Positions 16 to 39,868 of a stretch of DNA of 39,868 bases are shown here, one piece after another. A model generated the notes under the pieces. That model saw only the letters and a list, made by a program, of their open reading frames with translations. It ran no database searches and was not told where the DNA came from. The DNA lies in the IMG/VR virus record IMGVR_UViG_3300023105_001971, positions 1 through 39,868 of that record. The stretch is one strand, 5' to 3'. Every line of letters begins with the position of its first letter. Position 1 is the stretch's first letter. The translations under genes and the position numbers were made by a program. The stretch is from a virus. Taxonomy: Duplodnaviria; Caudoviricetes.

Positions 16-363
16 ATGGACCAACGACTAGAACAGGCGTTAGATTTTAGCAATTATATGATAACGCTAGATAATGCAAAGCGTATTTTAAAAGAACAAT
101 ACCAAGACAATTTAATTTGTTATTATAATGGCGGCAGATTTACTGTAACAAAAGAACTAGTAAGTTTTTGTCAAAGTTTATTATCGTTACAACAAGAACA
201 AACAATCTTAGTAGACGACAACGATTTTCCAGTTGAAGTGCAAGATTTACAAGAATTTACAAGCACAATAATTTCAAAGTATTTTGAGGCAACTAATACA
301 TATCTTACAGAATACAATAAATTAAAAGTCAATCGAACTGTAGAGGGAATCTTTAATGAGTAA
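16..363 (+). CDS. Hypothetical phage protein (115 aa)
   Basis: ORF with AAGGAG Shine-Dalgarno (4-9) before ATG; overlaps next gene; no catalytic motif recognised. Confidence 0.7.
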   Translation: MDQRLEQALDFSNYMITLDNAKRILKEQYQDNLICYYNGGRFTVTKELVSFCQSLLSLQQEQTILVDDNDFPVEVQDLQEFTSTIISKYFEATNTYLTEYNKLKVNRTVEGIFNE

Positions 364-1186
364 AGGTGCATTATTAATTGCACGTAATAATTCACAGATT
401 GACTATGTAAAACAAGCAATATTTTGTGCAAAAAAAATACAAGAACATTTAGATATACCAGTGAGTTTAATAACTGATAATAAAAGTTATTTAGATAAGT
501 TTGAGCATTCGTTTGACAAAATAATTGAAATTCCTAATACAATTGACTATCATCACAAAAGTTACAAAGATGGAATGTATGATAGAAAAAATTTAGAATT
601 TAAAAATACAGCAAGATCCGATGCTTATACATTAAGTCCATACAACGAAACACTGTTAATGGATACTGATGTTATTGTAGGTAACGATCATATGAAATCT
701 GTATTTGCACAGCAAAATGATCTTTTGCTATACAAGGATGCCTTTGAATTATCCAATTGGCGAGACTTGTTTGAGTTTGATCGTGTTAGTCCTAACACAA
801 TTGACTTTTATTGGGCTACTGTTGTATTTTTTAGAAAAAGCAAACTTACCGAAACGTTTTTTAATTTAATCACACATATTAAAGAAAACTGGCAACATTA
901 TAAAACACTATATCAAATTAAAAACGTTACATTTAGGAATGATTTTGCATTCAGTATTGCAGTACACATAATGAGCGGATATACAACCAATAAATTTGTA
1001 GGTAAGATGCCTGGTACACTGTATTATACACTTGATAGAGATATCTGTCATGATATAGACAAAAACAAATACAAATTTTTAATTGAAAAATCAGATGGAA
1101 CAGGATATTTTCCAACATCGATAAAAAACAGCACAGTGCATATTATGAATAAATTTAGTTTGAATAGGGTAATAGATGAGCATTAA
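356..1186 (+). CDS. GT-A fold glycosyltransferase-like protein (GT8/mannosyltransferase-like)
   Basis: N-terminal 'YVKQAIFCAKKI...PVSLITD' and 'SPYNETLLMDTD' DxD motif typical of GT-A; paralogous to next gene. Confidence 0.65.
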   Translation: MSKGALLIARNNSQIDYVKQAIFCAKKIQEHLDIPVSLITDNKSYLDKFEHSFDKIIEIPNTIDYHHKSYKDGMYDRKNLEFKNTARSDAYTLSPYNETLLMDTDVIVGNDHMKSVFAQQNDLLLYKDAFELSNWRDLFEFDRVSPNTIDFYWATVVFFRKSKLTETFFNLITHIKENWQHYKTLYQIKNVTFRNDFAFSIAVHIMSGYTTNKFVGKMPGTLYYTLDRDICHDIDKNKYKFLIEKSDGTGYFPTSIKNSTVHIMNKFSLNRVIDEH

Positions 1187-2024
1187 CTTTACAATATTTG
1201 CCCAAAATAGCACATATGATTATGTACAGCAAGCATGTGTTGCTGCTATGAGTATTAAACTAACCAATCCACAAAGTAAGATTTGTCTAATTACCAACGA
1301 TGCTGTTCCAAACAAATATCAAGATTTATTTGATCATGTAGTACCAATTCCTTTTGGCGATAAAAGTAAAAACAGTACATGGAAAATTGAAAATCGTTGG
1401 AAAATATATCATGCAACGCCATTTGAAGAAACTGCTGTAATTGACAGTGACATGTTGGTTTTAGACAATCTTGATCACTGGCAAAGTGCATTAGACAAAC
1501 ATGATTTGTTTTATGTAAACAAAGTACAAACATACAGAGGCGAGTGGGCTGATAACACATATTACAGAAAAAGTTTTCGTAATCACAACTTGCCCAATTT
1601 GTATGCAGGGTTCCATTGGTTTAAACGTTGTGAATTTTCGCATAACTTTTACAAGTGGTTAGAACTGGTAATGAACAATTGGGAACTGTTTTATGGACAA
1701 TATGCCGGCGGCAAGTATTTTCAACAGTTTCCGAGCATCGACGTAAGCAGTGCTATTGTTTGTAAAATATTACAAATTGAAGATAAAATAACCAGCAATA
1801 CAACTTATCCTACATTTACTCATATGAAATTAAAAAGTCAAGGCTGGGATAAAATTTATGTAGAAAACTGGCAAGAGCAAGTAGGAACATATTTAGACAA
1901 CGATTGCAATTTAAAAATAGGAAACTTTAGACAAACAGGTATTTTTCATTACACTGAAAAAAGTTTTTGTTCAGACCAAGTTATTCAAACATATGAAAAC
2001 AAGTTAGGAATTGCAAATGGATAA
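1176..2024 (+). CDS. GT-A fold glycosyltransferase-like protein (GT8-like), paralog of 356..1186
   Basis: 'YVQQACVAAMSIK...ICLITND', 'TPFEETAVIDSDML' DxD motif, C-terminal 'FTHMK' and 'IFHY'. Confidence 0.7.
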   Translation: MSINFTIFAQNSTYDYVQQACVAAMSIKLTNPQSKICLITNDAVPNKYQDLFDHVVPIPFGDKSKNSTWKIENRWKIYHATPFEETAVIDSDMLVLDNLDHWQSALDKHDLFYVNKVQTYRGEWADNTYYRKSFRNHNLPNLYAGFHWFKRCEFSHNFYKWLELVMNNWELFYGQYAGGKYFQQFPSIDVSSAIVCKILQIEDKITSNTTYPTFTHMKLKSQGWDKIYVENWQEQVGTYLDNDCNLKIGNFRQTGIFHYTEKSFCSDQVIQTYENKLGIANG

Positions 2025-2601
2025 ACCAAAATTATATGTATCAAACGAACGTTATGTTTATTTTGATGATACAGGAAATTTGATTAGGATTTCTAACAAA
2101 GATAACATAGAAGGCAATTATATTACTGTACAACTTGACGATGTAATGAGTATGATTACAGGTGCTGAGGGTATGGAAAAATATGTAGTACTGTTTGATA
2201 CTGTTACTAAACAAAATGTATTGCGTTCAAGATACATTGAAGAAGAAATTCAATTTGACATTAACAGTCAAATATATCAGTTACCGACTATAAAACCCAA
2301 TCGTCCAGATTTTACTATTCAACAAGATATTCCAAATAAAGTTTGGCGTTTAATACTAGATGAAACACTGCAATATAACTTGAAACAAAAAAGTTTAAAA
2401 TTTACAAGTGCTTTAAATATCAGTATTACAAAGAAAAATGATCCACATCATTTGCACAACAGTTTTGTGATTGATTTATCAGAATTAGACGAAAATGGAT
2501 TTGAAGTTCCGTTCACAAGCCAGATCGAACTTGACGCCAATGCATTAAGCGTATATACTACAAAGAGACTTGAAACATACTATCACGAGGTACTTCAATG
2601 A
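2017..2601 (+). CDS. Hypothetical protein (~194 aa)
   Basis: ORF track starts at TTG 2011; ATG 2017 follows an AGGA SD and is preferred; translationally coupled on both sides. Confidence 0.65.
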   Translation: MDKPKLYVSNERYVYFDDTGNLIRISNKDNIEGNYITVQLDDVMSMITGAEGMEKYVVLFDTVTKQNVLRSRYIEEEIQFDINSQIYQLPTIKPNRPDFTIQQDIPNKVWRLILDETLQYNLKQKSLKFTSALNISITKKNDPHHLHNSFVIDLSELDENGFEVPFTSQIELDANALSVYTTKRLETYYHEVLQ

Positions 2602-3539
2602 GCAACAAGTTTAGAGTTTTAGACTATGACATCATTTATCTGTCATATGACGAACCTAATGCAGAAGAAAATTACGCTGACTTGTGCAGCAAGATTCCGT
2701 GGGCCAAACGTGTACACGGAGTAAAGGGCAGCGATGCAGCACACAAAGCCTGCGCCGAAATTAGCGAAAGCGATAGATTTATTACTATTGATGGCGACAA
2801 CATTATTTTAAAAGAGTTCCTAGGTAAAGAATTTGATTTAGACAATCACGAAGATGCACACTGGAACAAAGAAGTAAAACTAGATGATTGTGTTATTAGT
2901 TGGAGTGCTAAAAACACAATCAACGGATTAGAATACGGCAATGGCGGCATCAAGTGTTGGCCTAAGCAAAAAGTGTTGGACATGCGTACACATGAAAATG
3001 CTGACCCTAACAATCCACATGCACAAGTAGACTTTTGTTGGGATATTGAATATATTCAAATGAACACTTGCTACAGTGAAATACGCAACAATGGATCTGC
3101 ACAACAAGCATGGCGAGCCGGATTTCGTGAAGGTGTAAAAATGGCACTGGATCGTGGTATGCGTGTTAGCGTAGATGACTTCCACAAAAATCATTGGAAA
3201 AACTTGCATCGTTTGTATGTGTGGCTAATGGTTGGTGCAGATGTAGAAAATGGACGCTGGGCTATTTACGGAGCAAGAGAAGGTTTGTACAAAACTATGT
3301 GTACAGATTGGGACTTTGTAAATGTGCGTGACTTTGATTGGCTCAACGATTATTGGAACAGCAAAGACATTAATGAAGATCAAATGGAAGAAGAAACACT
3401 TGACTATGGTTATAAGTTAATTGAAGAACTTGACTTGCCTATTGCTGCTGAACCTCTCAACGGCAATCAAAGTTTGTTCTTTAAAACTGTATATACTAAT
3501 CCTTCTCGTATTCCTAAAAGGAAATTAAATGTCATTTGA
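2598..3539 (+). CDS. GT-A/GT2-like glycosyltransferase
   Basis: 'DIIYLSYDEPNAEENY...RVHGVKG..AAH...FITIDGDN' (DxD), 'YGNGGIK', 'AWRAGFREGVK'; homologous to the C-terminal domain of 32950..34266. Confidence 0.65.
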   Translation: MSNKFRVLDYDIIYLSYDEPNAEENYADLCSKIPWAKRVHGVKGSDAAHKACAEISESDRFITIDGDNIILKEFLGKEFDLDNHEDAHWNKEVKLDDCVISWSAKNTINGLEYGNGGIKCWPKQKVLDMRTHENADPNNPHAQVDFCWDIEYIQMNTCYSEIRNNGSAQQAWRAGFREGVKMALDRGMRVSVDDFHKNHWKNLHRLYVWLMVGADVENGRWAIYGAREGLYKTMCTDWDFVNVRDFDWLNDYWNSKDINEDQMEEETLDYGYKLIEELDLPIAAEPLNGNQSLFFKTVYTNPSRIPKRKLNVI

Positions 3540-4911
3540 AACAGATAAAGCAAAATATATTAACGACATTACAAAAAGGCACTTTTCGCCTACGTTTTGC
3601 TTTGCTAAATGGTATCACACTACAATTTATTTGCAAACTGGTGAAACACACAGTTGTTATCATCCTGCGCCACATCAAATTGACGTAGATGAACTACTAA
3701 CCAATCCAAGTGCGTTGCATAACACAAAGCACAAAAAGCAAGAACGCAAAGAGATGTTAGAAGGCAAGCAGTGTGCAGGATGTCAGTATTGTTGGAATGT
3801 AGAAAACATGGGTCCTGATTTTATCAGTGACAGACATATTCGCAGTGGCAGCATTTACAACGAAGAAAGACTAAACGAAGTTAAGTTGAACCCTTGGGAC
3901 TTTGATGTAAACCCTGAGTACATTGAGATTTCGTTTGGCAATGAATGTAACTTCCGTTGTGGTTATTGTCATCCAAAAGCCAGCAGTAGATACCATCAAG
4001 AAATACGTCAGCACGGCCCTTATGATATGGTAAAAAATCATAGATGCGATGTTGATTGGTTTAAAGTATATGAAGAAGATAGCAATCCGTATGTACGTGC
4101 ATGGTGGAAGTGGTGGCCTGAAGTTAGTAAAACGCTAAACATTTTGCGTGTTACAGGCGGCGAACCTACTATTCAAAAAAGCACATACAGATTGTTTGAA
4201 GAACTTGAAAATGATCCTAAGCCGCATCTTGAACTAAATGTAAACAGTAACTTAGGCGGTAAAGAACGTCAACTTGCAAAATTTACAGATAACGTAAACA
4301 GTTTGCTTAGTCAAAATAAAATCAAAGCATTTAAATTGTTTACAAGTATTGACACTTGGGATAAACGTGCAGAATATATTCGTGACGGTTTAGATTTAGA
4401 AGTATTTGAACGTAATTTAGATTACTTCTTAACAAATACAACTGCACCTGTAACGTTTATGATTACGTTTAATTTGTTTAGTGTTACAACATTTCAAACA
4501 CTGCTAGAAAAAATCTTGGAATGGCGTGCCAAATACAATGATGTAAACAGCGGACGTTGGCAGCGTATTCATTTTGATACACCATATTTAAAAGAGCCAT
4601 TGCAGTACGATATAAACATTCTACCTAAAGAAACTTATATGCCTTATATGGAAAGTCATTTAAAGTTTATTGAAGAAAATGTTGCAGAAGGTTATAAGAC
4701 TGGATTTAGCAGCATGGAATATGAAAAGTTTAGACGTGTTGTGAGTTATATGAAAACAACTGAGTATGACGAGCAAAAAATACAAGAAGGACGAAAAGAC
4801 TTTTGGAACTTCTTTAAAGAACAAGATCGTAGACGTAATGTAGATTTTGAAGCAGCATTTCCTGAAATGGCAGACTTTTTTGCGCTGTGTAAGGAAGCAA
4901 ATGAAAGATGA
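3529..4911 (+). CDS. Radical SAM protein, long type with N-terminal SPASM/twitch-like Cys cluster
   Basis: CNFRCGYC (CX3CX2C), TGGEP, N-terminal FC...SCYH...CAGCQYC, 'YIRDG', C-terminal D..R...FPEM. Confidence 0.9.
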   Translation: MSFETDKAKYINDITKRHFSPTFCFAKWYHTTIYLQTGETHSCYHPAPHQIDVDELLTNPSALHNTKHKKQERKEMLEGKQCAGCQYCWNVENMGPDFISDRHIRSGSIYNEERLNEVKLNPWDFDVNPEYIEISFGNECNFRCGYCHPKASSRYHQEIRQHGPYDMVKNHRCDVDWFKVYEEDSNPYVRAWWKWWPEVSKTLNILRVTGGEPTIQKSTYRLFEELENDPKPHLELNVNSNLGGKERQLAKFTDNVNSLLSQNKIKAFKLFTSIDTWDKRAEYIRDGLDLEVFERNLDYFLTNTTAPVTFMITFNLFSVTTFQTLLEKILEWRAKYNDVNSGRWQRIHFDTPYLKEPLQYDINILPKETYMPYMESHLKFIEENVAEGYKTGFSSMEYEKFRRVVSYMKTTEYDEQKIQEGRKDFWNFFKEQDRRRNVDFEAAFPEMADFFALCKEANER

Positions 4912-6121
4912 ACATTTAACAAAAAGCAAAACGTTTTGTATGTTTCCTTGGTTGCATTTAAATGTAACACCAAAAGGAAACATATATCCTTGTTGTAGCA
5001 GTGATTACGTTGAGCCTTTTGCAAACACAAAAGACACTACACTTGAGCAAGCATTTAACAATGACAAGATGCGTCAATTGCGTTTAGATATGTTAGCAGG
5101 ACGTGAAAACGAAGCCTGCACTTTTTGTTATAAACACGAACTGAGTTCTCCTTACAGTTTTAGAAAATACAGTATTGAAAAATTTGCACACAAATATGAT
5201 GAACTTGTACCTTATACAAATGCAGATGGTAGTTTAGATAAGTTTACAATGGCGTATTATGATGTGCGTTTTAGTAATATTTGTAACTTTAAATGTAGAA
5301 CTTGTGGTAGTGAATTTAGTAGTAAGTGGGCACAAGAACACAAAGAACATGACGCACCGCCTCCAGGTTTTCGTGTAATACAACATGCAGATGCAAGTGG
5401 CAGTTTGCTGGATCAAGTTATTGAACAAATACCCAATATCGAACTTGCATATTTTGCAGGAGGCGAACCACTTATCACAGACGAACATTATGTTATACTT
5501 GAAGAAATGATTGCTAACGGTAGTTGTAAAGATATTACATTGCGCTATAATACAAACATGAGCAACTTCAAATACAAAAAATATGATGTGCTAGATATGT
5601 GGAGCAATTTCAAAGCAGTTGAAGTAAGCAGCAGTTTAGATCATTATGGTGCAAAAGCAGAATATATTAGACATGGCACGGATTGGAAAACTGTAGAAAA
5701 CAATTTGCGAAAAATACGTGATGTTGAATATATCGACTATCAATTTAATTGTGTATTGAGCAACTTGAACTATGTTACACTTGCTGATTTTTTTGAATAC
5801 ATGATAGACAATGACTTGTTACGCAAACACGATTACATTAGCATTTATCATTTGTTGAATCCTAGTTTTTACAGTGCGCAAAATTTGCCACAGCATTTAA
5901 AAGACAAAGGCAATACAAGACTGCAAAACTTAATAGATCAAATCAAAGACGAATATTGGTGTGTACAACATATTCAAAATGCAATGCAGTTTGCAAACAG
6001 TGCCAATATTTGGAATGATCACGGTGAAGAATTTATACATAATACTGTAAGACGAGATAAAATACGCAATGAAGATTTTACAGCAGTATTTCCAGAACTA
6101 TCGAGTATGCTAAATGGATAA
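4901..6121 (+). CDS. Radical SAM protein, long type
   Basis: CNFKCRTC, AGGEP, N-terminal FCMFPW...PCC...CTFC; ATG 4901 after AAGGA preferred over track start 4847. Confidence 0.9.
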   Translation: MKDEHLTKSKTFCMFPWLHLNVTPKGNIYPCCSSDYVEPFANTKDTTLEQAFNNDKMRQLRLDMLAGRENEACTFCYKHELSSPYSFRKYSIEKFAHKYDELVPYTNADGSLDKFTMAYYDVRFSNICNFKCRTCGSEFSSKWAQEHKEHDAPPPGFRVIQHADASGSLLDQVIEQIPNIELAYFAGGEPLITDEHYVILEEMIANGSCKDITLRYNTNMSNFKYKKYDVLDMWSNFKAVEVSSSLDHYGAKAEYIRHGTDWKTVENNLRKIRDVEYIDYQFNCVLSNLNYVTLADFFEYMIDNDLLRKHDYISIYHLLNPSFYSAQNLPQHLKDKGNTRLQNLIDQIKDEYWCVQHIQNAMQFANSANIWNDHGEEFIHNTVRRDKIRNEDFTAVFPELSSMLNG

Positions 6122-7382
6122 ACAAAAATTATTAAAAGAAGACGGTGCCTTTTGCATACTGCCTTGGATACACATGCATGCCTGGCCGGACGGTCGTGCT
6201 TTGCCTTGTTGTATTGCAGATAGTGATCAACCTTTTGGTAACTTGAAAGAAAACACTATTGAGGAAGTGTGGAATAGTGAACGTTACAAAGAGTTGCGTG
6301 TTGCCATGCTCAACGGTAAACAATTAGATACTTGTAAACGTTGCTATGAACTTGAAAACAGCACATGGATTTGGACACTGCGTAAAAACAGCAACGAATG
6401 GTTTGGTGACAAGCATTTTGACTTGGTAGAAAAAACCAAAGAGGACGGCACACTTACTGATATGCGTATGGCATATATGGATGTGCGTTTTAGTAATATT
6501 TGTAATATGAAGTGCCGTAGTTGCGGTCCTGAACTTAGTAGTTTACATGCACAAGAACATGGTGAATTATATGGTAAACATGAAATAGCCAACATGTTAA
6601 AAAACAATGGTAGTACTGTTGTAAACATTGCAAAAGAAAACAACTATTGGGAAAATTTACAAAAGTATTTGCCTGATGTAGAAGAAGTGTATTGGGCAGG
6701 CGGTGAGCCGCTTATTACAAATGAACATTACAAAATTCTTGACGAATGGATTGCTAATGGTAAAACAGATGTAAGATTGCGTTATACAACAAACTTTAGT
6801 AACATGCGTTATAAAAGCAAAAGCATTTACAGTTATTGGGAACAGTTTGATGATGTACAAGTTAGTGCAAGTTTAGATGCAAATGGTGCTAGAGCAGAAT
6901 TTATGCGCCACGGAACAGACTGGCAACAAATCGAACAAAATCGTATCGAAATGTTAGAGCGTGTACCTCATGTACATTTTGAAATTACACCAACTATTAG
7001 TTTGTACAATGTTTGGAATTTTCCAGACTTTCATATGGATTGGGTAGAGCGTGGACTTGTAGACATTGACAAGTGCAGACTCAACGTGTTAACTGGTCCT
7101 GACTTTATGCGTATTGATTATATACCAGAAGAATACAAGCGTGAACTACGTGCCAAGTATATTGATTATAAGAAATGGGCATACGAAAAATGCAAAGATG
7201 AAAACATGGTACGTGAAGTATTAGGGCATATTGACAGTGTGTTACAATTTATGAACATGGGTGAATACAACCAAGAAAAATTAAATCAATTCTTTCAAAA
7301 AAATCACACATTAGATGTGCATCGCAAAGAAGATTTTTGGGCAGTATTTCCTGAACTAGGATGGTTAAGAAAACATGTCTAG
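6114..7382 (+). CDS. Radical SAM protein, long type (tandem paralog of 4901..6121)
   Basis: CNMKCRSC, AGGEP, FCILPW...PCC...CKRC, C-terminal FPEL. Confidence 0.9.
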   Translation: MDKQKLLKEDGAFCILPWIHMHAWPDGRALPCCIADSDQPFGNLKENTIEEVWNSERYKELRVAMLNGKQLDTCKRCYELENSTWIWTLRKNSNEWFGDKHFDLVEKTKEDGTLTDMRMAYMDVRFSNICNMKCRSCGPELSSLHAQEHGELYGKHEIANMLKNNGSTVVNIAKENNYWENLQKYLPDVEEVYWAGGEPLITNEHYKILDEWIANGKTDVRLRYTTNFSNMRYKSKSIYSYWEQFDDVQVSASLDANGARAEFMRHGTDWQQIEQNRIEMLERVPHVHFEITPTISLYNVWNFPDFHMDWVERGLVDIDKCRLNVLTGPDFMRIDYIPEEYKRELRAKYIDYKKWAYEKCKDENMVREVLGHIDSVLQFMNMGEYNQEKLNQFFQKNHTLDVHRKEDFWAVFPELGWLRKHV

Positions 7383-10979: not shown

Positions 10980-10999
10980 TAAATACCCATATATTTATT
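10980..10999. promoter_or_regulatory. Overlapping divergent TAAATA motifs
   Basis: + TAAATA 10980-85 and - AATAAATA 10999-92, each followed by GGAG and a TTG start. Confidence 0.5.
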
Positions 11000-11012
11000 G
11001 GAGTATAGAATT

Positions 11013-12808: not shown

Positions 12809-12817
12809 AGGAATTAT

Positions 12818-14421: not shown

Positions 14422-14422
14422 A

Positions 14423-29168: not shown

Positions 29169-29173
29169 ACTCT

Positions 29174-29201
29174 ATTATAACACACATCAGTAATGTGTCA
29201 A
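29174..29201 (-). promoter_or_regulatory. Consensus sigma70-type promoter with extended -10, leaderless start of the QueC-like gene
   Basis: Minus strand TTGACA, 16 bp ending in TGT, TATAAT, then 5 nt to ATG 29168. Confidence 0.8.
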
Positions 29202-29993: not shown

Positions 29994-29998
29994 GCAAA

Positions 29999-30015
29999 TA
30001 CTTATCCAGTAAATA
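29999..30015. promoter_or_regulatory. Divergent TAA(A/G)TA promoter motifs between two oxygenase genes
   Basis: - strand TAAGTA-TTTGC-ATG (29993); + strand TAAATA-CTGC-ATG (30020); no SD on either side. Confidence 0.6.
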
Positions 30016-30019
30016 CTGC

Positions 30020-31334: not shown

Positions 31335-32905
31335 TAACTATATAAAGGCAAGAACTTTGGTTCACCGTTTACAGTAATTTGTAACCAACTGTCAGGGGCA
31401 GTTGTATTTGAAGGTTCTACGCCTGTTTCTCCGTCTGTATTAATTTCTGCTAATGTAACATGCAACTTGCCATGATTGTCGTAAATCATATAGTTTGCTT
31501 GTTCTTCGTAGCCACCTGTTACAAAATACAAATCTCCAGGGCACCCTGCTTCTTTCAAGTCAGGTCTAACGTCTGCATCTTCGGGTATTCTTGCATAAAT
31601 TGCTGCAACGTATGATTTAGTTTTAAACAAATCTCCGCCCATGTGTATTGCAGTGCTGTCGTTTGGATTAGCATTTGTGTCAATGATTGCACTATAAACC
31701 AATCCAGGTAATTTTTGTCCTGGTTTAACAGGAACTGGATCTGTTTGTGTACCACCCGACAAGCAAAGTTCCATACCTATTTGTAGCCAATCACGTACAG
31801 GAGGCTCAAATTCTCTAAAGTATCTTAACTCAATTGCTGGTTCGCTGAATACTTTATCTATTTCTATTTTTAAACCGTTGTGATCAAAATTTGCGTTTGG
31901 CAGTTCTAAGCATTCGCCACTTAATTGTTCTGTAAACAAATTAGAAACACTGATACTATTTGACTTAGCATTGTATATTTCTATTCCGTTGTCGTTATAG
32001 ATATTACCTTTGAGATCTACATTGTGTAGCATTCGTTGTTCACTATCAAACAATAATTCGTTTGTAGTTGGATCACAAATATCACCTGCAAATACCCCTG
32101 AAATCTTTTTTGCAACAACTTCGTCTGCTGATACAACTGAAACTGACAATTCGTCGTTATCTAAATTGTACATGCTATTGCCAATTTTGTTTAGAATGTC
32201 ACCGTAAAACGATCCTGTAAAGTCACCTTGTAAACTGTCTATAGTTTTGTGTTCAACATCGATAAAAACGTTGCCTGTACTGTCAACAATGTTACCTAAC
32301 AAGTTACCAAAAAATGTACCTTGGAATGTGTTTGTTTCTGCATTGTAAACTGTTTCGCCATTTCTGTCAGTAAAGTCGCCCACAAATTTACCTGTAAATA
32401 CACCTGTGTTGTGATCATAAGATAGCAATCCGTCACTGGTGTATACATTACCGATTACGTCTTTTTTGATTGCACCAATTTCGTTATCAAAAACTACATT
32501 TCCTTCACGGTCAAGGATACTGCCTTTGACATTTCCTAGCCAAGTGTTATTGGAAATATCTGTTAAAATATCTCCATTGTTATTGTATATGTCTCCGACT
32601 ACGTCACATTTTATAATGTTGGTATCTGTATCGTATACAATATCGCCTTTTTCGTTTACAATATTAGCACGAATTGTATTAGCATCAATATGATAAGTTT
32701 CGATGTCAATGATTTTTCTACCATGCACACCTAGTACATGACCTTTAACATTACCTAGATACTCTCCTAGATCTTGATCGATAAGCAGTTCGCCATCACT
32801 GTTTACAATGTTAGCCATCACTGTGCGATTGTAACTATCAATCATCATGGTGCTGTCTGCACCTACAATATTAATCCTATACGGAGCACCTTCGTAAAGT
32901 TCCAT
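31334..32905 (-). CDS. Acidic Gly/Asn/Asp-rich repeat protein, probable virion fibre/structural protein (523 aa)
   Basis: AAGGAG SD; about 11 repeats of G(N/D)(I/V)x(D/N)xxGxxhxD; C-terminal 'PSNTTAPDSWLQITVNGEPKFLPLY' resembles the ends of phage fibre proteins. Confidence 0.55.
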   Translation of the reverse strand: MELYEGAPYRINIVGADSTMMIDSYNRTVMANIVNSDGELLIDQDLGEYLGNVKGHVLGVHGRKIIDIETYHIDANTIRANIVNEKGDIVYDTDTNIIKCDVVGDIYNNNGDILTDISNNTWLGNVKGSILDREGNVVFDNEIGAIKKDVIGNVYTSDGLLSYDHNTGVFTGKFVGDFTDRNGETVYNAETNTFQGTFFGNLLGNIVDSTGNVFIDVEHKTIDSLQGDFTGSFYGDILNKIGNSMYNLDNDELSVSVVSADEVVAKKISGVFAGDICDPTTNELLFDSEQRMLHNVDLKGNIYNDNGIEIYNAKSNSISVSNLFTEQLSGECLELPNANFDHNGLKIEIDKVFSEPAIELRYFREFEPPVRDWLQIGMELCLSGGTQTDPVPVKPGQKLPGLVYSAIIDTNANPNDSTAIHMGGDLFKTKSYVAAIYARIPEDADVRPDLKEAGCPGDLYFVTGGYEEQANYMIYDNHGKLHVTLAEINTDGETGVEPSNTTAPDSWLQITVNGEPKFLPLYS

Positions 32906-32914
32906 AAAATCTCC

Positions 32915-32943
32915 TTGACAACTTTGCTAGTAGTATATATAAT
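32915..32943 (+). promoter_or_regulatory. Perfect-consensus sigma70-type promoter, leaderless start
   Basis: TTGACA (32915-20), 17 bp, TATAAT (32938-43), then 6 nt to ATG 32950 with no SD. Confidence 0.85.
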
Positions 32944-32949
32944 AGTGAT

Positions 32950-34266
32950 ATGTATGATATAGTCTTTATTGGCAAAAACACAGAAAACTTTGACCTACTA
33001 AAGAAACGATTTCCACTAGCCAAAAAGGCACTTGATGTTAAACAAGCACAGCGTATAAGTTTAACAAAGTTTCTTTGGCTTGTTTGGGATGATGTTGTAG
33101 TGCAAGATGATTTTAACTTTGACTACGTGCCTGATGCGTGGAGTCAAAACGTTATCCATTTGTTTTTAAATGGAGAGCATTATGACGGCATTTGTTTGGT
33201 TCCAAAGTCTATGGATATTACACAAAAAGAAATCGATCATAGATTTTTTGTGTCAAATAAGAAAGTAGAAATACAGGCTAGTAAACCTTGCAAGTTTGAA
33301 GTTTTTGAAACTTTAACATACGAAGATTATCTTGATGCTTTGGAAACAAGCAAATATGATATGTTTTGGATTGTACCAGATTATGTTAATCCTGCAAGGC
33401 ATTTTAAGTTTGACAGTTACTTTAGCCATCTTGGACGTAATACAAACTATGCTTATTTGAATGGCAAATATCATGACGGTATTGTGTTGTGCAGTAAAAA
33501 AGCAAAATTCAGTAGACGTGAATTTGATTACAAATTTATTGCAAACAAAAAAGAAATAGATATTATTGTAAGCACACCTAAACCCTATGACATGGTGTTT
33601 ATCAGTTACCAAGAGCCAAATGCTGATGAAAATTATGAACGTATACTGCAACGTTTTCCAGACTGCAAACGTGTACACGGTGTAAAAGGCATCCACCAAG
33701 CACATATCGAAGGTGCTAAATTGTGTAACACAGATATGTTTTGGATTGTTGACGGTGATGCAATCATTGTAGATGATTTTAACTTTGATTATCAAGTAGC
33801 ACGTTGGGATAAAGAAACTGTGCATGTATGGCGCAGTCAGAATCCGATCAATGATATGGTATATGGTTATGGCGGTGTAAAATTATTTCCAACAGAACTA
33901 ACAATCAATATGGACACTACAAAGCCTGATATGACAACCAGTATCAGCAGCAAGTTTAAAGCAGTGCATGACATTAGCAACATTACAGCATTTAACACAG
34001 ATGCATTTAACAGTTTTAAAAGTGGATTTAGAGAATGCTGTAAATTAAGTTCGAAAGTTATTGATAGACAAAAAGACAATGAAACAAATGAACGCTTGCG
34101 CAAATGGTGTACAATAGGCAGCGATAGACAATACGGTAAGTATGCTATTGCAGGAGCAAAAGCAGGTGCAGCGTATGGTATGTTGCACCAAGGAGATTTA
34201 CAAGCATTGAAAAAAATCAACGACTTTGATTGGCTACAGGAGCAATTTGAAAATGCAAACATTTGA
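32950..34266 (+). CDS. Multi-repeat GT-A/GT2-like glycosyltransferase
   Basis: Three related units (FLWLVWDD, MFWIVPDY, MFWIVDGD); last unit 'DMVFISYQEPNADENY...RVHGVKGIHQAH...YGYGGVKL...SGFRECCKL' homologous to 2598..3539. Confidence 0.7.
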   Translation: MYDIVFIGKNTENFDLLKKRFPLAKKALDVKQAQRISLTKFLWLVWDDVVVQDDFNFDYVPDAWSQNVIHLFLNGEHYDGICLVPKSMDITQKEIDHRFFVSNKKVEIQASKPCKFEVFETLTYEDYLDALETSKYDMFWIVPDYVNPARHFKFDSYFSHLGRNTNYAYLNGKYHDGIVLCSKKAKFSRREFDYKFIANKKEIDIIVSTPKPYDMVFISYQEPNADENYERILQRFPDCKRVHGVKGIHQAHIEGAKLCNTDMFWIVDGDAIIVDDFNFDYQVARWDKETVHVWRSQNPINDMVYGYGGVKLFPTELTINMDTTKPDMTTSISSKFKAVHDISNITAFNTDAFNSFKSGFRECCKLSSKVIDRQKDNETNERLRKWCTIGSDRQYGKYAIAGAKAGAAYGMLHQGDLQALKKINDFDWLQEQFENANI

Positions 34267-35302
34267 ATTATTAGATAGATTTGAATTATTGTATCCGACA
34301 AATACAAAGTTAGCAGACTTGCGTAGAACTTACATTGATAATGATTTAAGTAGTTTATTTAGATTGGTCGATGCTGATGAAGAATTACGAAAAGCAATTT
34401 TAGAAAAAAATCTGCACAGTATTTTTAGACTATTACCAGAAGAACCTGGAGCATTTGGTACTGTAGATGATTTACGCAAAGCAGTAATTGAACAAAACTT
34501 ACATAGTATTTTTAGATTAGTGGATCATGAAGATTTACGTAAGGCAGTAACAGAAGATAATTTACACAGTGTATTTAGATTACTTAACGATGATGATTTG
34601 CGTAAACTTGTATTAGAAGATAATACTTGGAAGTTATGGCCTGTTTTAGAACGTTATGTTAATACACAATTTATTGCAGCATTTAAAAGTTTCTTTGTAA
34701 ACGATGTTGAAATATGGAACGACTGTTTTAGTCGAGGACAAATACAAAGTAAACTATGGTTAATCAACGAACTTAAAAAATGTAAAGTAGATCTAGGCAC
34801 AGTGTATTTGTGTGCAGGTTGGTATGCTACACTTGCTACAATGCTTTTTGAAAGCGGTATGAAGGTAGATAAAATTCGCAGTTTTGATATTGATCCAAGT
34901 TGTGTAGATATTGCTGAAACATTTAATAAACCTTGGTTTGTTGATAATTGGAGGTTTAAAGCAGTTACAAAAGATATTATGCACATTACATATGATGAAC
35001 ACTGGTGGGAAAGTTGGAGCAATGCAAACAACAGGATGAGTAAACCTATACTTGACATACCAGACACTATTATTAATACCAGTTGTGAACATATACCTAA
35101 TTTTGCAGAATGGTATGCTAAGATTCCAGATGGCAAGTTAGTTGTATTACAAAGCAATAACTATTATGAAGTAGAAGAACATGTTAATTGTGTTAAGGAT
35201 ATAAAAGAATTTGGTAATATGGCACGTATGACAGGTCCGTTATATGCAGGAGAATTAGAATTGCCTAAATACAAGAGGTTTATGTTAATTGGATATAAAT
35301 GA
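34253..35302 (+). CDS. Class I methyltransferase-like protein with N-terminal helical tandem repeats
   Basis: ATG 34253 after AGGAG; 'GQIQSKLWL', 'LCAGWYA', 'SFDIDP', 'INTSCEH', 'LQSNN', 'RFMLIG'. Confidence 0.75.
   Translation: MQTFELLDRFELLYPTNTKLADLRRTYIDNDLSSLFRLVDADEELRKAILEKNLHSIFRLLPEEPGAFGTVDDLRKAVIEQNLHSIFRLVDHEDLRKAVTEDNLHSVFRLLNDDDLRKLVLEDNTWKLWPVLERYVNTQFIAAFKSFFVNDVEIWNDCFSRGQIQSKLWLINELKKCKVDLGTVYLCAGWYATLATMLFESGMKVDKIRSFDIDPSCVDIAETFNKPWFVDNWRFKAVTKDIMHITYDEHWWESWSNANNRMSKPILDIPDTIINTSCEHIPNFAEWYAKIPDGKLVVLQSNNYYEVEEHVNCVKDIKEFGNMARMTGPLYAGELELPKYKRFMLIGYK
34337..34624 (+). repeat. Four in-frame ~20-30 aa tandem repeats (NLHSIFRL...DLRKAVxE)
   Basis: DNDLSSLFRLVDADEELRKAILE / KNLHSIFRLLPEEPGAFGTVDDLRKAVIE / QNLHSIFRLVDHEDLRKAVTE / DNLHSVFRLLNDDDLRKLVLEDN; visible in DNA as recurring 'agtatttttaga...gatttacg'. 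Confidence 0.9.
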
Positions 35303-35513
35303 TTTATCAATAAGAGAACTGCAAAAAGAAAGTGCAAGAGCATTGAGTACAATGCAAGCAACAAACAATAATATATGGCAGTTCAACAAACGTGCGCATC
35401 ATAACAGTCATAATTGGTATGTTGCTGTTATTGAATGGTATGTAGAACAGTATGGTGATTTACCTAGTAAGACCGGACCTGGTAAGGATATAAAGTTGGT
35501 ATACGATGTATAG
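35289..35513 (+). CDS. Small hypothetical protein (74 aa)
   Basis: Exactly fills the gap between the methyltransferase and radical SAM genes, overlapping both; GAGG upstream. Confidence 0.6.
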   Translation: MDINDLSIRELQKESARALSTMQATNNNIWQFNKRAHHNSHNWYVAVIEWYVEQYGDLPSKTGPGKDIKLVYDV

Positions 35514-36585
35514 ATACGAAGATATACGTGTTATTCATTTAGAAAACACACAAAACTGTCAAGCAAGTTGTCCTATGTGTGACCGTAATCAAAACGGTGG
35601 TGCACTAAATCCGCATATTGATTTAAGCGAATTAACCTTAGATGATTGTAAACGTATTTTTGAACCTGACTTTATCAAACAACTAAAAACCATGTACATG
35701 TGTGGCAACTTGGGCGATCCTATTGTTGCACGAGATACATTAGAAATATTTCGTTACTTTAGAGAGCACAATGCAGACATGTGGCTTTCGATGAATACAA
35801 ATGCAGGAGCAAAAAGTGTTGAATGGTGGAAAGAACTTGCCCAAGTCTTGGGTAGAATGGGTGCTGTTATTTTTAGCGTGGATGGTCTTAGTGACACTAA
35901 TCATTTATACAGGCAAGGTGTTGTCTGGGACAATGTAGAACGTAATATGCGGGCGTTTATTGACGCTGGCGGCAGAGCACGTTGGGATTTTCTTATTTTT
36001 GAACATAATCAACATCAAGTCGAAGAAGCCGAAGCATTGGCAAATGCATGGGGATGTGAGCGTTTTATCAAAAAGAAAACCGGTAGATTTGTAACTGCAA
36101 GTAGTGAAAAGAAAGAGTCACACCAAGCAGTTGATCGTAAAGGAAATGAAACTACAGAAATTAAAAAACCTGATGAAAAGTTTTTAAACAAAGCACTAAC
36201 CAAACAGGATGCACTGTTAGAAAAGTATGGCACTATGGATGCTTATTACGATGTAGTGCCAATTAATTGTAAAGTCAAAGATGAAGGTAGTTTGTTTATC
36301 ACAGCCGAAGGACTTGCCATGCCTTGTTGTTGGACTGCTGGTAGAATGTACAAGTGGTGGAACCCAGATCCAAAGGTAGAGCAGATATGGAACTTTATCG
36401 ATGCTGTAGGCGGCAAAGATGCTATCAACGCAAAGAAACATGGACTTAAACAGGTGTTTGAAACAGGTATATTTGAAAACATTGAGAGCAGTTGGAACAT
36501 TAAAGGTTGTAGTAATGGCAAACTTAAAGTGTGCAGCATGAAGTGCGGAGTTGAGTTTGATCCGTTTGGAGAACAGTTTAAATGA
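35506..36585 (+). CDS. Radical SAM protein with C-terminal SPASM/twitch-like domain (third subtype)
   Basis: CQASCPMC, 'CGNLGDP' in place of GGEP, 'FSVDG', C-terminal C...PCCW...CSMKC. Confidence 0.9.
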   Translation: MYRYEDIRVIHLENTQNCQASCPMCDRNQNGGALNPHIDLSELTLDDCKRIFEPDFIKQLKTMYMCGNLGDPIVARDTLEIFRYFREHNADMWLSMNTNAGAKSVEWWKELAQVLGRMGAVIFSVDGLSDTNHLYRQGVVWDNVERNMRAFIDAGGRARWDFLIFEHNQHQVEEAEALANAWGCERFIKKKTGRFVTASSEKKESHQAVDRKGNETTEIKKPDEKFLNKALTKQDALLEKYGTMDAYYDVVPINCKVKDEGSLFITAEGLAMPCCWTAGRMYKWWNPDPKVEQIWNFIDAVGGKDAINAKKHGLKQVFETGIFENIESSWNIKGCSNGKLKVCSMKCGVEFDPFGEQFK

Positions 36586-37370
36586 TAGAACTAGATAAAA
36601 ATAAAAAAAGTATAGGAATAATTGGGTGTAGTTATACACATTGGCATGATGGAAACTGTGAACTTGAAAGTTATCCTGCATTAATTGCAAAAAAATATAA
36701 TGAATATAACGTTGTTGATTTAAGTATGCCAGGATCTTCAAATGATTCGGCATATATTAGATTACGCTCTTTTGAAAAATTACATAATATAAAGTTTGAT
36801 AAAGTGATTTTTCAAATAACTCATTATGGTAGATTTTTACACATGCCTCAATATAACGTAAAAAACACCGATATATTTAGAGAATACCGTCAACTCAAAA
36901 ATTATATCTACACAGACGGAAATTGGAAAGACGAAAATTGGGATACTATTACTTCTTCGTATTTAATTTCTCCTAGTTTGATTTTCAAAGTTTGGTATAG
37001 AGAAAGACTTGATTTTTTGTCTAACCATTTTCGGATAAAAGTCAAAGACTTACAAAAATGGTTATATCATTATTTAGAATCTGATATGTTATCATTAGTT
37101 CTTGAAAAAGAAATGCATGTGATAAATGGAATTTATGGAAAAGACAATGTTCTATTGTTTTCGTGGCATGCAGGAATCGATAGCAGCGATTTGACATCAT
37201 TTGAAAAATGTGATTTTCCAGAAAACTATATAGGATCAATGGCAGAAATGATTGGACCTAAGACTTTTTTTAAATTAGGAATTGACGATGCTCCGCATTA
37301 TGATCGAATCGGAAACGGAATAGTTTTTAAACACCTAAAACCACGTTTAGATAAATTATTAACACCTTAA
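36582..37370 (+). CDS. SGNH-like protein (GCS variant)
   Basis: 'IIGCSYT', 'DLSMPGSSN', 'FQITHYGR', C-terminal 'DDAPHY'. Confidence 0.65.
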   Translation: MIELDKNKKSIGIIGCSYTHWHDGNCELESYPALIAKKYNEYNVVDLSMPGSSNDSAYIRLRSFEKLHNIKFDKVIFQITHYGRFLHMPQYNVKNTDIFREYRQLKNYIYTDGNWKDENWDTITSSYLISPSLIFKVWYRERLDFLSNHFRIKVKDLQKWLYHYLESDMLSLVLEKEMHVINGIYGKDNVLLFSWHAGIDSSDLTSFEKCDFPENYIGSMAEMIGPKTFFKLGIDDAPHYDRIGNGIVFKHLKPRLDKLLTP

Positions 37371-37378
37371 AATAAGTA
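37371..37378 (+). promoter_or_regulatory. AATAAGTA late-promoter-like motif
   Basis: Lies in the 16-bp gap before ATG 37387, with an 8-nt spacer and no SD. Confidence 0.45.
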
Positions 37379-37386
37379 CGTATATA

Positions 37387-38802
37387 ATGACAGAAAAAAC
37401 ATATACATCAGACACATTTTGTATTCTACCATGGGTGCATCTAAGCACAAGACCAGACGGTAGTATGAGAGTATGTTGCACAGCAAATGCAAGCAGTGTT
37501 GGTGCAACCAATGATAAAGAACACGGCGGACAAGTTGGCATACTAAAAACAGATGATGGCAAGCCCAACAACTTGAATGTGACAGATTTTCAAACTGCTT
37601 GGAATAGTCAGTATATGTGCAATGTTCGCAAACAAATGCTAAACGGTGAAAAACCGCCTAGTTGTTTAAAGTGTTATAGAGAAGAAGAAGCAGGACATAA
37701 TAGTAAACGTATGTGGGAAACTGCATATTGGAGCCAGCGTGTAGATGTAGATAAACTTATTGCAGACACAAACAAAGATGGCAGTGTTCCGCCTAACCTA
37801 GCATACATTGATTTGCGATTTGGCACCAAGTGTCAACTTGCCTGTGTAATGTGTTCACCGCACGATAGTAGCGGATGGATCAAAGACTACAAAAAAATAT
37901 TTCCTGCTGTGCAAAATGCATCACTTAAAGAAACAATGCAATGGCAAGACAAAGGCAGCACAAATGGCAGTAGTTACAATTGGCACAAACAAAATCCAGT
38001 ATTTTGGCAACAATTCTATGAACAAATGCCTAGTATGCAGCAAATTTATTTTGCTGGCGGTGAAAGTCTTATCATTGAAGAACATTATGAAATACTTGAA
38101 CATGCAATTAAAATGGGCTATGCAAAAGATCTTGAATTGCGTTACAACAGCAATGGTGTTGAGTGGAGAGAAGATTTGTTTGACCTATGGAAAGAGTTTA
38201 AATTAGTACGTTTTCATTACAGTGTAGACAGTATACACGAAATGAACGACTATATTCGTTATCCTAGCAAATGGACACGCACACAGGAAGTGTTTCATAT
38301 ATTAGACAATGAAACAAGTAATAATGTTGAAATAACTATTGCTTGTGCAGTTCAGGCACTTAACATCTATTATATTCCAGATTTTATCAAATGGAAACTT
38401 GAACAAGGATTTAAAAAGATTAACATGTGGCCATTTGGCGCAGGAGGTGTAAACTATCACTTTGTGTATCATCCACCACATCTAAATGTTAAAGTGCTAC
38501 CAGCATGGTTCAAAGCAGAAGTGCGTAAAAAGTATGAAGAATTTTATCCCTGGTGGGAAGCAAATTGGGAAAAGGGTATTCCGAGTTGGCACAAAGGCAA
38601 AGTAGATTATGACAAGTGGCGTGATGCTGGATACGGTATTAAACGACTACAGGGTATGTTAAACTTTATGGAAAGCGATGACTGGAGTGTGCGTTTGCCG
38701 GAGATGCGAGAATTTTTAGAATTGTGCGATAAGCAACGTGGATTAAACTGGCAAGAAGTATTTCCTGAAATGGCAGACATATTTGAAACGGAGACAGCAT
38801 GA
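37387..38802 (+). CDS. Radical SAM protein, long type (paralog of 19449..20831)
   Basis: FCILPW...VCC...CLKC, CQLACVMCSPHDSS, AGGES, 'YIRYP', FPEM. Confidence 0.9.
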   Translation: MTEKTYTSDTFCILPWVHLSTRPDGSMRVCCTANASSVGATNDKEHGGQVGILKTDDGKPNNLNVTDFQTAWNSQYMCNVRKQMLNGEKPPSCLKCYREEEAGHNSKRMWETAYWSQRVDVDKLIADTNKDGSVPPNLAYIDLRFGTKCQLACVMCSPHDSSGWIKDYKKIFPAVQNASLKETMQWQDKGSTNGSSYNWHKQNPVFWQQFYEQMPSMQQIYFAGGESLIIEEHYEILEHAIKMGYAKDLELRYNSNGVEWREDLFDLWKEFKLVRFHYSVDSIHEMNDYIRYPSKWTRTQEVFHILDNETSNNVEITIACAVQALNIYYIPDFIKWKLEQGFKKINMWPFGAGGVNYHFVYHPPHLNVKVLPAWFKAEVRKKYEEFYPWWEANWEKGIPSWHKGKVDYDKWRDAGYGIKRLQGMLNFMESDDWSVRLPEMREFLELCDKQRGLNWQEVFPEMADIFETETA

Positions 38803-39356
38803 TTATTACAGGTAACAAAAACTCTGGACTGGCAGGCGCATTGTATAAATTGTATCCTGATGCTGTGTTTGTAAGTAGAAATACAGGGTTTGATTTAACA
38901 ATCAAAAAAGATCAAGAACGTTTTGCTGAATTAGCAACAGAGCATGATGTTTTTATTAATAACAGTGTTATGTGGAAGTTTCAACAAACTGTTTTATTAA
39001 ATGAAGTTTATCACAAGTGTATCGAGAAAAAACATGATATGCACATTGTAAATATCAGTAGTACTACTGATCGTGTTAAAAAAGGCGGCAGTTGGTTATA
39101 TAATGCAGAAAAGAAAGCATTACGTGATTATTCAAATACGCTTGGACTAAATGGTGTTTGGAATGAAGGTCCTAAATTATCTTTAATCAGCGTTGGCACG
39201 TTAAGCAATAAACAAGACAAACACCCAAATAGAAATACACTAGATATAGACGTTGCTGCACAATATATTAAATGGGTAATAGATCAACCGAGACATATTG
39301 CAATTAATGAATTAAGTATTGATCCTATGCAACCCGATGAATGGTATGAGGAATAA
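38799..39356 (+). CDS. Short-chain dehydrogenase/reductase (compact, 185 aa)
   Basis: 'IITGNKNSGLAG', 'VFINNS', 'IVNISS', 'YNAEK' (YxxxK). Confidence 0.8.
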   Translation: MIITGNKNSGLAGALYKLYPDAVFVSRNTGFDLTIKKDQERFAELATEHDVFINNSVMWKFQQTVLLNEVYHKCIEKKHDMHIVNISSTTDRVKKGGSWLYNAEKKALRDYSNTLGLNGVWNEGPKLSLISVGTLSNKQDKHPNRNTLDIDVAAQYIKWVIDQPRHIAINELSIDPMQPDEWYEE

Positions 39357-39359
39357 ATT

Positions 39360-39868
39360 ATGAGTTGCACATTCTGCCCACTACCGTGGAACAGTATTAA
39401 CCTAAGAAACAATGGTGATTTACGTATTTGCTGTAACACAAACAGTTATAGTCCGCAACGTGGTATTATGAAAAAAGAAGATGGTACTACATACAATGCG
39501 GGCAAAGACGACTGGAATGAAGCACGTAATGCGCCAATTTTAAAAGAAGTACGTGCAGCAATGCTTAAAGGTGAATGGCATCCTGAATGTGAACGTTGTA
39601 GACAAGAAGAAATTAACGGTATTCGTAGTCGTAGAGAATATGAATCTGATGACTGGGCTAAATGGTTTGGCAATCATATCGATTTAGAAAAAGCACAAGA
39701 AATTACAGAAGAAGACGGAACACTTGATGTAAGTAAACAAGATATTAATTTTGTTGACATACGTTATGGAAACTTTTGTAATTTAAAATGTCGTATGTGT
39801 GGCCCAACTGACAGTCATAAGTGGTATGAAGATCATGTTAAAATTACTGGCAGAACACACTATACAGA
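39360..39868 (+). CDS. Radical SAM protein, long type (3' end beyond the window; absent from the ORF track)
   Basis: Read by hand: MSCTFCPLPWNSINLRNNGDLRICC...CERC...DIRYGNFCNLKCRMCGPTDS; GAGG SD; no stop before the window edge. Confidence 0.9.
   Translation, partial: MSCTFCPLPWNSINLRNNGDLRICCNTNSYSPQRGIMKKEDGTTYNAGKDDWNEARNAPILKEVRAAMLKGEWHPECERCRQEEINGIRSRREYESDDWAKWFGNHIDLEKAQEITEEDGTLDVSKQDINFVDIRYGNFCNLKCRMCGPTDSHKWYEDHVKITGRTHYT

Follow-up and report, generated by a model that had tools for sequence, protein, structure and literature searches.

What does a phage build with thirteen radical S-adenosylmethionine (SAM) enzymes? The question is raised by the IMG/VR record IMGVR_UViG_3300023105_001971, a stretch of 39,868 bases (here called the window; G+C about 34%, coding share 99.6%), in which such enzymes stand among glycosyltransferase-like and tailoring genes in one gene island. 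Its genes are numbered g01–g43 by position, and g44 is an extra gene that had been overlooked. The best explanation, to which we give a probability of roughly 0.45, is a phage-made glycoconjugate on tail proteins that would be built and edited by the island enzymes. We favor this reading because the enzymes appear to be soluble, their chemistry points to nucleoside diphosphate (NDP)-sugars, the island is linked to tail genes, its variability resembles that of O-antigen loci and the enzymes would be available late in infection. An original prediction, made from the sequence of the window, had proposed a sugar-type pathway, and this is supported by a GT-A fold, a glycogenin-like profile, a StrB1-type amidinotransferase and sugar-gene cassettes in relatives. 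The virion, its preferred target, would still be the likeliest single acceptor, and the core of marine relatives has promoters of host type.

The carrier phage and the conserved core

Judged by gene content, the window is part of a T4-like jumbo phage genome. Two overlapping contigs (99.95% identity over 11 kb, n=2) extend it upstream with tail and tail-fibre genes, and the window starts immediately downstream of the latter. One overlapping contig of 47.6 kb is 13% complete according to CheckV, which gives a genome size of about 365 kb. The hallmarks of a T4-like jumbo myovirus (gp23 capsid, gp55-like late sigma factor, baseplate and tail genes, more than 200 kb) are found in the overlapping contig and in syntenic relatives rather than within the window. 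Upstream of the island in G161, the nearest relative, are genes for a late sigma factor, for SbcC/D nucleases and for the baseplate, and a 335-kb syntenic contig in a metagenome-assembled genome (MAG) encodes a capsid protein 64–69% identical to those of Rak2/PA5oct-like jumbo phages. A cellular origin is ruled out by the virus record and the upstream tail genes. The original prediction thus holds on the viral origin; the contig classification that it had proposed yields a gp23-type capsid and a late sigma factor in the relatives and the overlapping contig, and the cluster continues past the right edge as it had expected, with g43 cut by the contig end and a longer island in G161. The window probably covers about the first two thirds of the whole island. 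No tRNA genes were found in it. Some bacterial MAGs of GTDB also include binned jumbo-phage contigs, among them one of 335 kb (L086, L092 (G004:C57, C77), L088–L090, L093).

Relatives were sampled as the best 80 of 607 confirmed g05 loci plus the overlapping contig L001, which form 58 clusters at 90% identity. The order g02-g03-x-g05 occurs in all 54 relatives with enough flank, tail genes lie upstream of the core in 46 of 48, and in 46 of 47 a radical SAM gene follows at a distance of up to 5 kb. Comparison of these loci shows a fixed core of g01–g05, g37, and g38, around which cassettes vary as in an O-antigen locus. The stretch between g05 and g37-g38 ranges from nothing to about 30 kb among relatives, whose cassettes include genes for UDP-glucose dehydrogenase, a hexapeptide acetyltransferase and B12-dependent radical SAM enzymes. 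The gene order g01–g41 is almost completely preserved in G161 and G162, at 36–89% protein identity, and these two have 23 and 21 genes with the radical SAM motif CX3CX2C, respectively. G161 spans the whole island of about 55–60 kb, which runs from about 44 to 105 kb there and at whose right end lie nitroreductase, oxygenase, AMP-ligase, sulfotransferase, thiolase-type and subtilase genes and an Mtd_N fibre gene. Fibre genes encoding Mtd_N proteins thereby bound the island on the right too. The gene families do co-occur in syntenic order across relatives, as had been predicted. The family of g05 is large: clustering at 90% identity gives at least 8,000 groups, and IMG/VR is estimated to contain members on 2,800 stretches.

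The island opens with g01 (16..363, + strand), a conserved core protein of 115 amino acids to which no function is assigned; the start had been placed at 356, and the actual start is at 16. The next gene, g02 (356..1186, +), is a GT-A-like paralogue of g03 (25% identity) with a DTD motif at 103; it belongs to the phage-specific part of the core, and its own profile has no match in the PDB. The GT8/glycogenin-like glycosyltransferase g03 (1176..2024, +; DSD at 90) matches glycogenin at 2.6e-6 over its first 105 positions alone and has no Pfam match. The fourth gene, g04 (2011..2601, +), encodes a two-domain non-enzyme, and g05 (2598..3539, +) a protein with a DGD motif at 65 and a helical C-terminal domain. 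Comparison of its predicted structure assigns g05 to the GT-A fold, which is also common to nucleotidyltransferases, and a DxD motif is present. The second core block (32950..35302, +) is headed by a sigma-70-type promoter (32915..32943, +; 12/12 consensus positions) and comprises g37, a GT-A-like paralogue of g05 with 33% identity, and the methyltransferase-like g38. On this structural basis, g05 and g37 are putative sugar transferases that use NDP-sugars. The N-terminus of g38 (34226–34650) contains about four helical repeats that are missing in its paralogue g22 and in its homologue from phage RsoM2USA. Adjacent to g38 lies g44 (35289..35513, +; 74 amino acids), which has a median identity of 84% over 79 loci, is more conserved than g37 and g38, adjoins g38 in 75 of the 79 loci and co-occurs with a radical SAM neighbour in 38 of 70. 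It is possibly a partner or substrate of g38. No other conserved small open reading frame (ORF) was found in the island in a survey of 547 small intergenic ORFs of the window and relatives.

Structure prediction supports a transferase complex of g02, g03, and g04. The three-chain model scores 0.85, compared to 0.19 for the best of three controls; of the pairs used to calibrate the mark for this score, 116 of 157 solved ones and 2 of 215 mismatched ones pass it, counts that are valid only roughly for three chains and our own alignments. Contacts agree in at least 86% among runs, the predicted local distance difference test (pLDDT) of the partners is at least 75, and the Ig-like C-terminal domain of g04 is placed as a bridge between g02 and g03. 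By itself, g04 is predicted as two domains with a pLDDT of 89, and its N-terminal domain stays outside the confident interface of the complex. Foldseek finds no match for g04 in the PDB at E ≤0.001 and three strong matches in BFVD that are unnamed or uncharacterised. In some relatives, one to two copies of a small repeat are inserted between the g04 domains (L030:8664-10001, L024:3788-5200), and one phage has the same repeat within the N-terminus of g03 (L024:5193-6098). A resemblance of these repeats to CBM5/12 was considered and discarded, as Pfam gives no match.

A minimal form of the core exists in the cultured phage RsoM2USA (MG752970), the only match of g03 and g05 among 50,697 phage records. 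Its ORFs 354–347 correspond to g01, g02, g03, a gene in the g04 position, g05, g06, g37, and g38 (27–46% identity) and are located after tail genes, and a homologue of g20 sits between the tail sheath and tail tube genes. RsoM2USA has one radical SAM gene only, the g06 homologue, and lacks SGNH cassettes. ORFs 347–358 thus form a syntenic minimal core in a tail operon, comparable to the arrangement here, and differ from it in the single radical SAM gene and in late promoters: TAAATA is located ahead of the genes for sheath, epimerase and tube and ahead of the g01 homologue, and no sigma-70 site is found at the core. The accessible text of the RsoM2USA paper names just ORF358 (GDP-mannose dehydratase) in this region, and the ten virion bands that it reports include no core protein (PMC8504454); the sequence record lists all of these ORFs as hypothetical. 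A short hairpin (L003:17315-17345) separates the late motifs from the g01 homologue. Elsewhere in this genome, ORF10 (L244:3608-4444) is an unannotated dCMP hydroxymethylase-like gene beside genes for a dCMP deaminase and a nucleotide kinase, which makes the region a separate candidate DNA-modification cluster.

Radical SAM enzymes, tailoring genes and gene packing

The motif CX3CX2C occurs once each in 13 of 43 ORFs, and 12 have a GGE-type motif. Pfam Radical_SAM matches 12 of the 13 and the truncated thirteenth matches SPASM, so the motifs are not due to chance and the predicted number of radical SAM enzymes is borne out. Six of them, g06, g07, g08 (together 3529..7382, +), g23, g30, and g41, pass the NCBIfam model NF033640 (N_Twi_rSAM; 306–425 bits, cut-off 170), and the truncated g43 (39360..39868, +) scores 145 bits and is of the same type. 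These seven share the N-terminal twitch cysteines of the catalogue entry, which lie ahead of CX3CX2C, whereas the auxiliary cysteines are C-terminal in the other six. The island differs from the entry in bringing many paralogues together with the six C-terminal-cysteine enzymes. Some of the radical SAM proteins are weakly similar to MoaA, viperin and QueE. A twitch radical SAM enzyme that oxidises a cyclitol is described in the accessible text of a paper on BtrN (PMC9012708). By analogy, the NF033640 enzymes might carry out BtrN-like sugar chemistry; BtrN differs in that its twitch domain is C-terminal and that the product of its pathway, butirosin, is a free antibiotic.

The tailoring enzymes are most firmly assigned where the proposed profile and structure searches gave strong matches, namely for g14, g18, g20, and g27; many others match weakly. 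The minus-strand gene g14 (11791..12798) shows a full-length profile match to StrB1 (PDB 1bwd, 1e-56) and has Asp, His and Cys residues that we take to be those catalytic in StrB1; in the streptomycin pathway, the product of the StrB1 route is a free antibiotic. A DegT-type aminotransferase that depends on pyridoxal phosphate is encoded by g18 (15208..15795, −; 1e-14), at 195 amino acids just half-size. The NDP-sugar epimerase/dehydratase g20 (4e-39) lies between two GT10-like genes, g19 and g21, and is followed by the methyltransferase-like g22 (g19–g22: 15785..19452, +). The amidinotransferase, aminotransferase and epimerase of the original prediction are therefore firm. Among its three 2-oxoglutarate (2OG)-Fe(II) oxygenases, g27 stands (5e-7), and the calls for g33 (an HxD motif only) and g34 (30020..30673, +) are motif-level or weak. 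Its short-chain dehydrogenase/reductase (SDR; g42, short, 4e-5) and its PP-loop protein (g32, QueC-like, PHROG 1e-8, Pfam 0.003) keep their labels on weaker matches. Four of its seven glycosyltransferase-like genes (g02, g03, g05, g37) are upheld by fold, profile or paralogy. The three GT10-like genes, the tentatively assigned g12 (9631..10959, −), g19 and g21, are supported at motif level or below threshold; g21 matches Glyco_transf_10 with E 0.0017 and 18.5 bits (cut-off 23.9), and its profile search has no PDB match. Eight SGNH-like genes share block I G-x-S and block V D-x-x-H, with weak Pfam matches (g09 0.0095; g11 DUF6071), and the two methyltransferase-like genes g22 and g38 reach E values of just 0.26–0.6; these labels are retained on motifs and sub-threshold scores.

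The remaining genes fill the space around the core. SGNH-like g09, radical SAM g10 with C-terminal cysteines and SGNH-like g11 lie at 7375..9651 (+), SGNH-like g13 at 10998..11804 (+) and the SGNH-like paralogues g15, g16, and g17 (mutual identity 37–39%) at 12818..15247 (+). N-twitch g23 and the C-terminal-cysteine radical SAM genes g24 and g25 follow at 19449..22790 (+). On the minus strand are g26 and g27 (22750..24628), the C-terminal-cysteine radical SAM genes g28 and g29 with N-twitch g30 (24652..27849), and SGNH-like g31 with g32 and g33 (27824..30050). The g26 protein is found in virus-only clusters, matches no family and has no function assigned. The protein-kinase-like (APH/Kdo/RIO) fold of g35 (30654..31334, −) appears altered at catalytic-loop and DFG-position residues, as in a small-molecule kinase or a pseudokinase. 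Next to it lies g36 (31334..32905, −), the fibre-like gene that had been noticed within the cluster; one of its distant homologues carries Mtd_N. Radical SAM g39, SGNH-like g40, N-twitch g41 and g42 (35506..39356, +) complete the window. The original list had lacked g01, g04, g26, g35 and the conserved g44.

The gap is at most 20 bp in 32 of 33 same-strand neighbour pairs, taking the earliest start codons. Thirteen of the 44 genes are on the minus strand and there are 10 strand switches, which imply at least 11 transcription units. The tight packing of a single coupled cluster is hence confirmed, while the single unit gives way to a fixed core and separately promoted cassettes.

Expression, cellular counterparts and competing explanations

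Several results weigh against a tail glycoconjugate. The structural matches of g05 are middling (best Z 9.9, TM ~0.34) and include nucleotidyltransferases, and the calls are weak for three of seven glycosyltransferase-like, all eight SGNH-like and both methyltransferase-like genes. No measured reaction for any NF033640 enzyme was found in the literature. The sole listed structural match of the g04 N-terminal domain is the Mu tail-fibre chaperone (Z 4.0, root-mean-square deviation 2.7, 54 residues, rank 19); Pfam, PHROG and PDB profiles do not back this one weak row, and a chaperone role of g04 was set aside as a lead only. Since the relatives are the best of those confirmed, their counts favor close kin. 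Finally, some enzymes occur on chromosomes and the core is transcribed apart from the tail genes.

The chromosomal copies are found in Bdellovibrionota. GTDB contains 13 loci, all in MAGs, of which most are apparent mis-binned phage contigs and three are chromosomal. Among 151 genomes of the Bdellovibrionota class to which G009 belongs, the g05/g37 profile matches in 22, one of them marginal, and g41 homologues with 57–63% identity occur in 18; g02 has one marginal match and g44 none. Six Bdellovibrionota loci have the order dnaB-GT2-GT2-GT2-g05 beside ribosomal protein genes, and others combine g37, g38, g41, g39, g10-like and g23-like genes. One bacterial island presumably lies between EF-Tu and ribosomal protein/rpoB genes, as recognised from the N-termini. 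Enzymes such as g05/g37 and g41 that are present on chromosomes without a virion need no virion acceptor. The phage-specific part appears to be g01–g04 and g44, with genome-wide searches covering g02 and g44. In a g41 tree, 16 phage rows form one clade (100/100) inside six bacterial rows; the joining node (94/95) is unstarred, and so we claim no donor. A bacterial chromosome (L118–L120, G005:C34:140-200 kb) bears, in an island flanked by EF-Tu and ribosomal protein genes, about 15 radical SAM genes with a g05/g37/g38/g39/g41 set; membrane proteins, one small and one of middle size, recur there in pairs. In a Rhodospirillales MAG, two of three tandem g05 homologues are fused to Sel1 repeats (L098:1968-6080), a hint of protein acceptors.

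Promoter motifs, read as early or late by analogy with T4, suggest how the core is expressed. Perfect sigma-70-type sites (TTGACA-N16/17-TATAAT, 12/12) occur once each at g01, 6–34 bases 5' of the window start in L001, at g37 and at g32 (29201–29174, −). Sites of at least 11/12 lie ahead of g01 in 43 of 52 marine relatives; for g37 the count is 13 of 36 relatives, and among random windows the share is 0.9%. ATAAATA is located before tail genes (7/7, 34/42, 23/63) and g36 homologues (11/11) and before g01 in 1 of 52. The core is thus transcribed separately from the tail genes and probably early, and late transcription of the island as one operon by read-through from the tail genes is ruled out for this phage, although a search of the interval ahead of g01 found no terminator. 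Evidence in the opposite direction comes from the late motifs of RsoM2USA and from nine marine g01 genes that lack a sigma-70 site, of which six have TAAATA, one abutting the start codon. Furthermore, TAA[A/G]TA lies 4–8 nt before the ATG of seven cassette genes, g14, g18, g19, g27, g33, g34, and g41 (window 12798, 15795/15785, 24628, about 29990, 30020, 37387). At distances of 4 and 5 nt, it precedes 1.6% and 1.4% of 370 island starts versus 0 and 0.08% of 2,641 internal ATGs. This proximity suggests leaderless late transcripts, and the presence of the enzymes late in infection would be common to all members. The divergent g18 and g19 have one near-palindromic TAA[A/G]TA site in common. Two metatranscriptomes (shares 0.05–0.06) contain few short exact pieces of the window as contigs, such as 516 bases in g14, which may be DNA; they gave no indication of expression timing or habitat.

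Early promoters at g01 and g37 are what one would expect if the island remodeled the host surface early, altering O-antigen, capsule or a surface-protein glycan from the cytoplasm against superinfection or grazing. The cellular operons with g05 fit such a role as well, and members of the GT8 and GT10 families act on lipopolysaccharide in bacteria. Still, we consider it unlikely. Membrane proteins, flippases and polymerases are missing from the window, the core of RsoM2USA carries late motifs instead of a sigma-70 site, a lytic phage would gain little from about 20 iron-sulfur enzymes for host display, and the tail linkage and the phage-only g02 are left unexplained. Phage serotype-conversion loci of the GtrABC/Oac type include a membrane-embedded transferase or flippase. 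The island does not resemble them, as no window protein contains a hydrophobic 19-mer scoring above 1.55, and its enzymes in the window would all be soluble, lacking a membrane segment. At the right island end of the relative G006, a TctA-family membrane transporter gene (L109:2238-3527) is an exception to this all-soluble pattern.

A host-surface target has been proposed for the host recognition cluster of pelagimyophages and cyanomyophages, a large hypervariable island of the structural region that combines tail fibres with glycosyltransferases and with radical SAM cassettes subject to gain and loss; in the accessible text, the host O-chain as target is itself a proposal (PMC7029224). That cluster is placed between VrlC and gp14 in myophages of SAR11 or cyanobacteria. 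The present island, which may function alike, lies after tail genes in a jumbo genome of about 350 kb from a different phage group, is not followed by neck genes in G004 or G161, and has a fixed g01–g05 core and far more radical SAM genes; g03 and g05 have no match in any cultured cyanophage or pelagiphage. Because tail-linked islands of glycosyltransferase and radical SAM genes are in print for aquatic myophages, at least in the accessible part of that paper, the arrangement is not wholly undescribed as the original prediction had it, while its chemistry is. Likewise, as far as the accessible texts go, cyanophage S-SCSM2R has a similar mix of glycosyltransferase, aminotransferase, radical SAM and amidinotransferase genes (PMC12801897), and moraphages share four core glycosyltransferase orthogroups (PMC12619734). 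Radical SAM and 2OG genes occur without a given function in an unrelated jumbo phage (PMC11898562). A literature search, which was thin on subscription papers and excluded supplements, found no study of the biochemistry of this core.

The enzyme repertoire could also be that of a diffusible aminocyclitol or nucleoside-type small molecule directed at host defences or competitors. StrB1, DegT, BtrN-like twitch enzymes, an SDR and an APH-like kinase resemble an aminoglycoside-style toolkit, the common enzymes are found in predatory bacteria, and G161 adds AMP-ligase, sulfotransferase and thiolase-type genes. We regard this as rather improbable: the amidinotransferase and aminotransferase are optional cassettes missing from the RsoM2USA core, the invariant part consists of four transferase-like genes and an adaptor, and no exporter or cyclitol synthase is seen. 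Alternatively, a plastic tail-adjacent region may have gathered unrelated tailoring units, leaving only the core as a system. The 10 strand switches, the several separate promoters, the occurrence of cassettes in both orientations across relatives and radical SAM genes outside the island in G003 and G006 are compatible with such a collection. It is nevertheless improbable given the nearly complete gene order kept in G161 and G162 and the insertion of cassettes, drawn from few recurring families, between both core blocks.

Hypermodification of DNA, in which transferases and radical SAM enzymes would decorate a modified base to evade restriction, might explain the early-type promoters, the MoaA, viperin and QueE likenesses, QueC-like g32 and the hydroxymethylase-like gene of RsoM2USA (T4 gp42, 1e-22). 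It has little to recommend it, as about 210 kb separate that gene from the core, the island is located among virion genes and itself contains no hydroxymethylase or TET, five marine records, all incomplete, matched canonical thymidylate synthases only, and these five gave no TET/JBP match, with the control likewise blank. A glycopeptide resembling a ribosomally synthesised and post-translationally modified peptide, with a small conserved protein such as g44 as substrate, is very improbable despite the top Foldseek matches of g05 to the glycocin S-glycosyltransferases ThuS and SunS (E 2e-4 to 5e-4) and the conservation of g44, since g44 tracks the methyltransferase rather than radical SAM genes, is unseen in the RsoM2USA region and in the 151 bacterial genomes, and is the sole conserved small ORF in a window without peptidase or exporter.

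A possible assembly route and its implications

For a tail glycoconjugate, virion glycosylation by virus-encoded soluble transferases offers a precedent. Freeman and colleagues reportedly described glycans on capsid and tail-tube proteins of mycobacteriophages in 2023. The mycobacteriophage and PBCV-1 systems glycosylate virion proteins with few transferases and, in the portions of this literature covered, without radical SAM tailoring; g05 has a weak Foldseek match to the capsid glycosyltransferase of chlorovirus PBCV-1 (PDB 2p6w/2p73, E 2e-3).

The glycan would be assembled in the host cytoplasm and attached to a phage protein, most probably of tail fibres or baseplate. First, the phage-specific g02-g03 priming complex, joined by g04, may add the first sugars to the acceptor protein, which the free N-terminal domain of g04 might, speculatively, recognise. 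Then g05, g37 and the methyltransferase-like g38, all common to Bdellovibrionota, could extend and cap the chain. Unusual NDP-sugars would be provided by g20, g18, g14, g42, and g35, and homology to DegT and StrB1 suggests an amino sugar that becomes a guanidino or amidino sugar. Lastly, the radical SAM enzymes may oxidise, epimerise or deoxygenate sugar carbons in a BtrN-like manner, and SGNH, 2OG and PP-loop enzymes may add or remove groups. Exchangeable cassettes would thereby result in a lineage-specific "virion serotype."

A bolder and more doubtful version, which we offer tentatively, sees an "O-antigen" of aquatic jumbo phages in a clade that is very common: g02-g03-g04 would prime tail fibres, and radical SAM enzymes, up to about 23 in number and in part taken over from predatory Bdellovibrionota, would rewrite the glycan into strain-specific serotypes. 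If true, no larger radical-chemistry pathway would be known from a virus; its chemistry would be of a kind not yet seen, and an eight-gene minimal form of it would exist in a cultured phage. For the N-twitch radical SAM family, the island also supplies genomic context and hence candidate substrates. With the minimal core and the predicted complex of three subunits, a 40-gene puzzle is reduced to about eight genes. Virion glycosylation, otherwise the work of a few transferases, would then include a tailored and diversifying polymer on the surface of aquatic jumbo phages.

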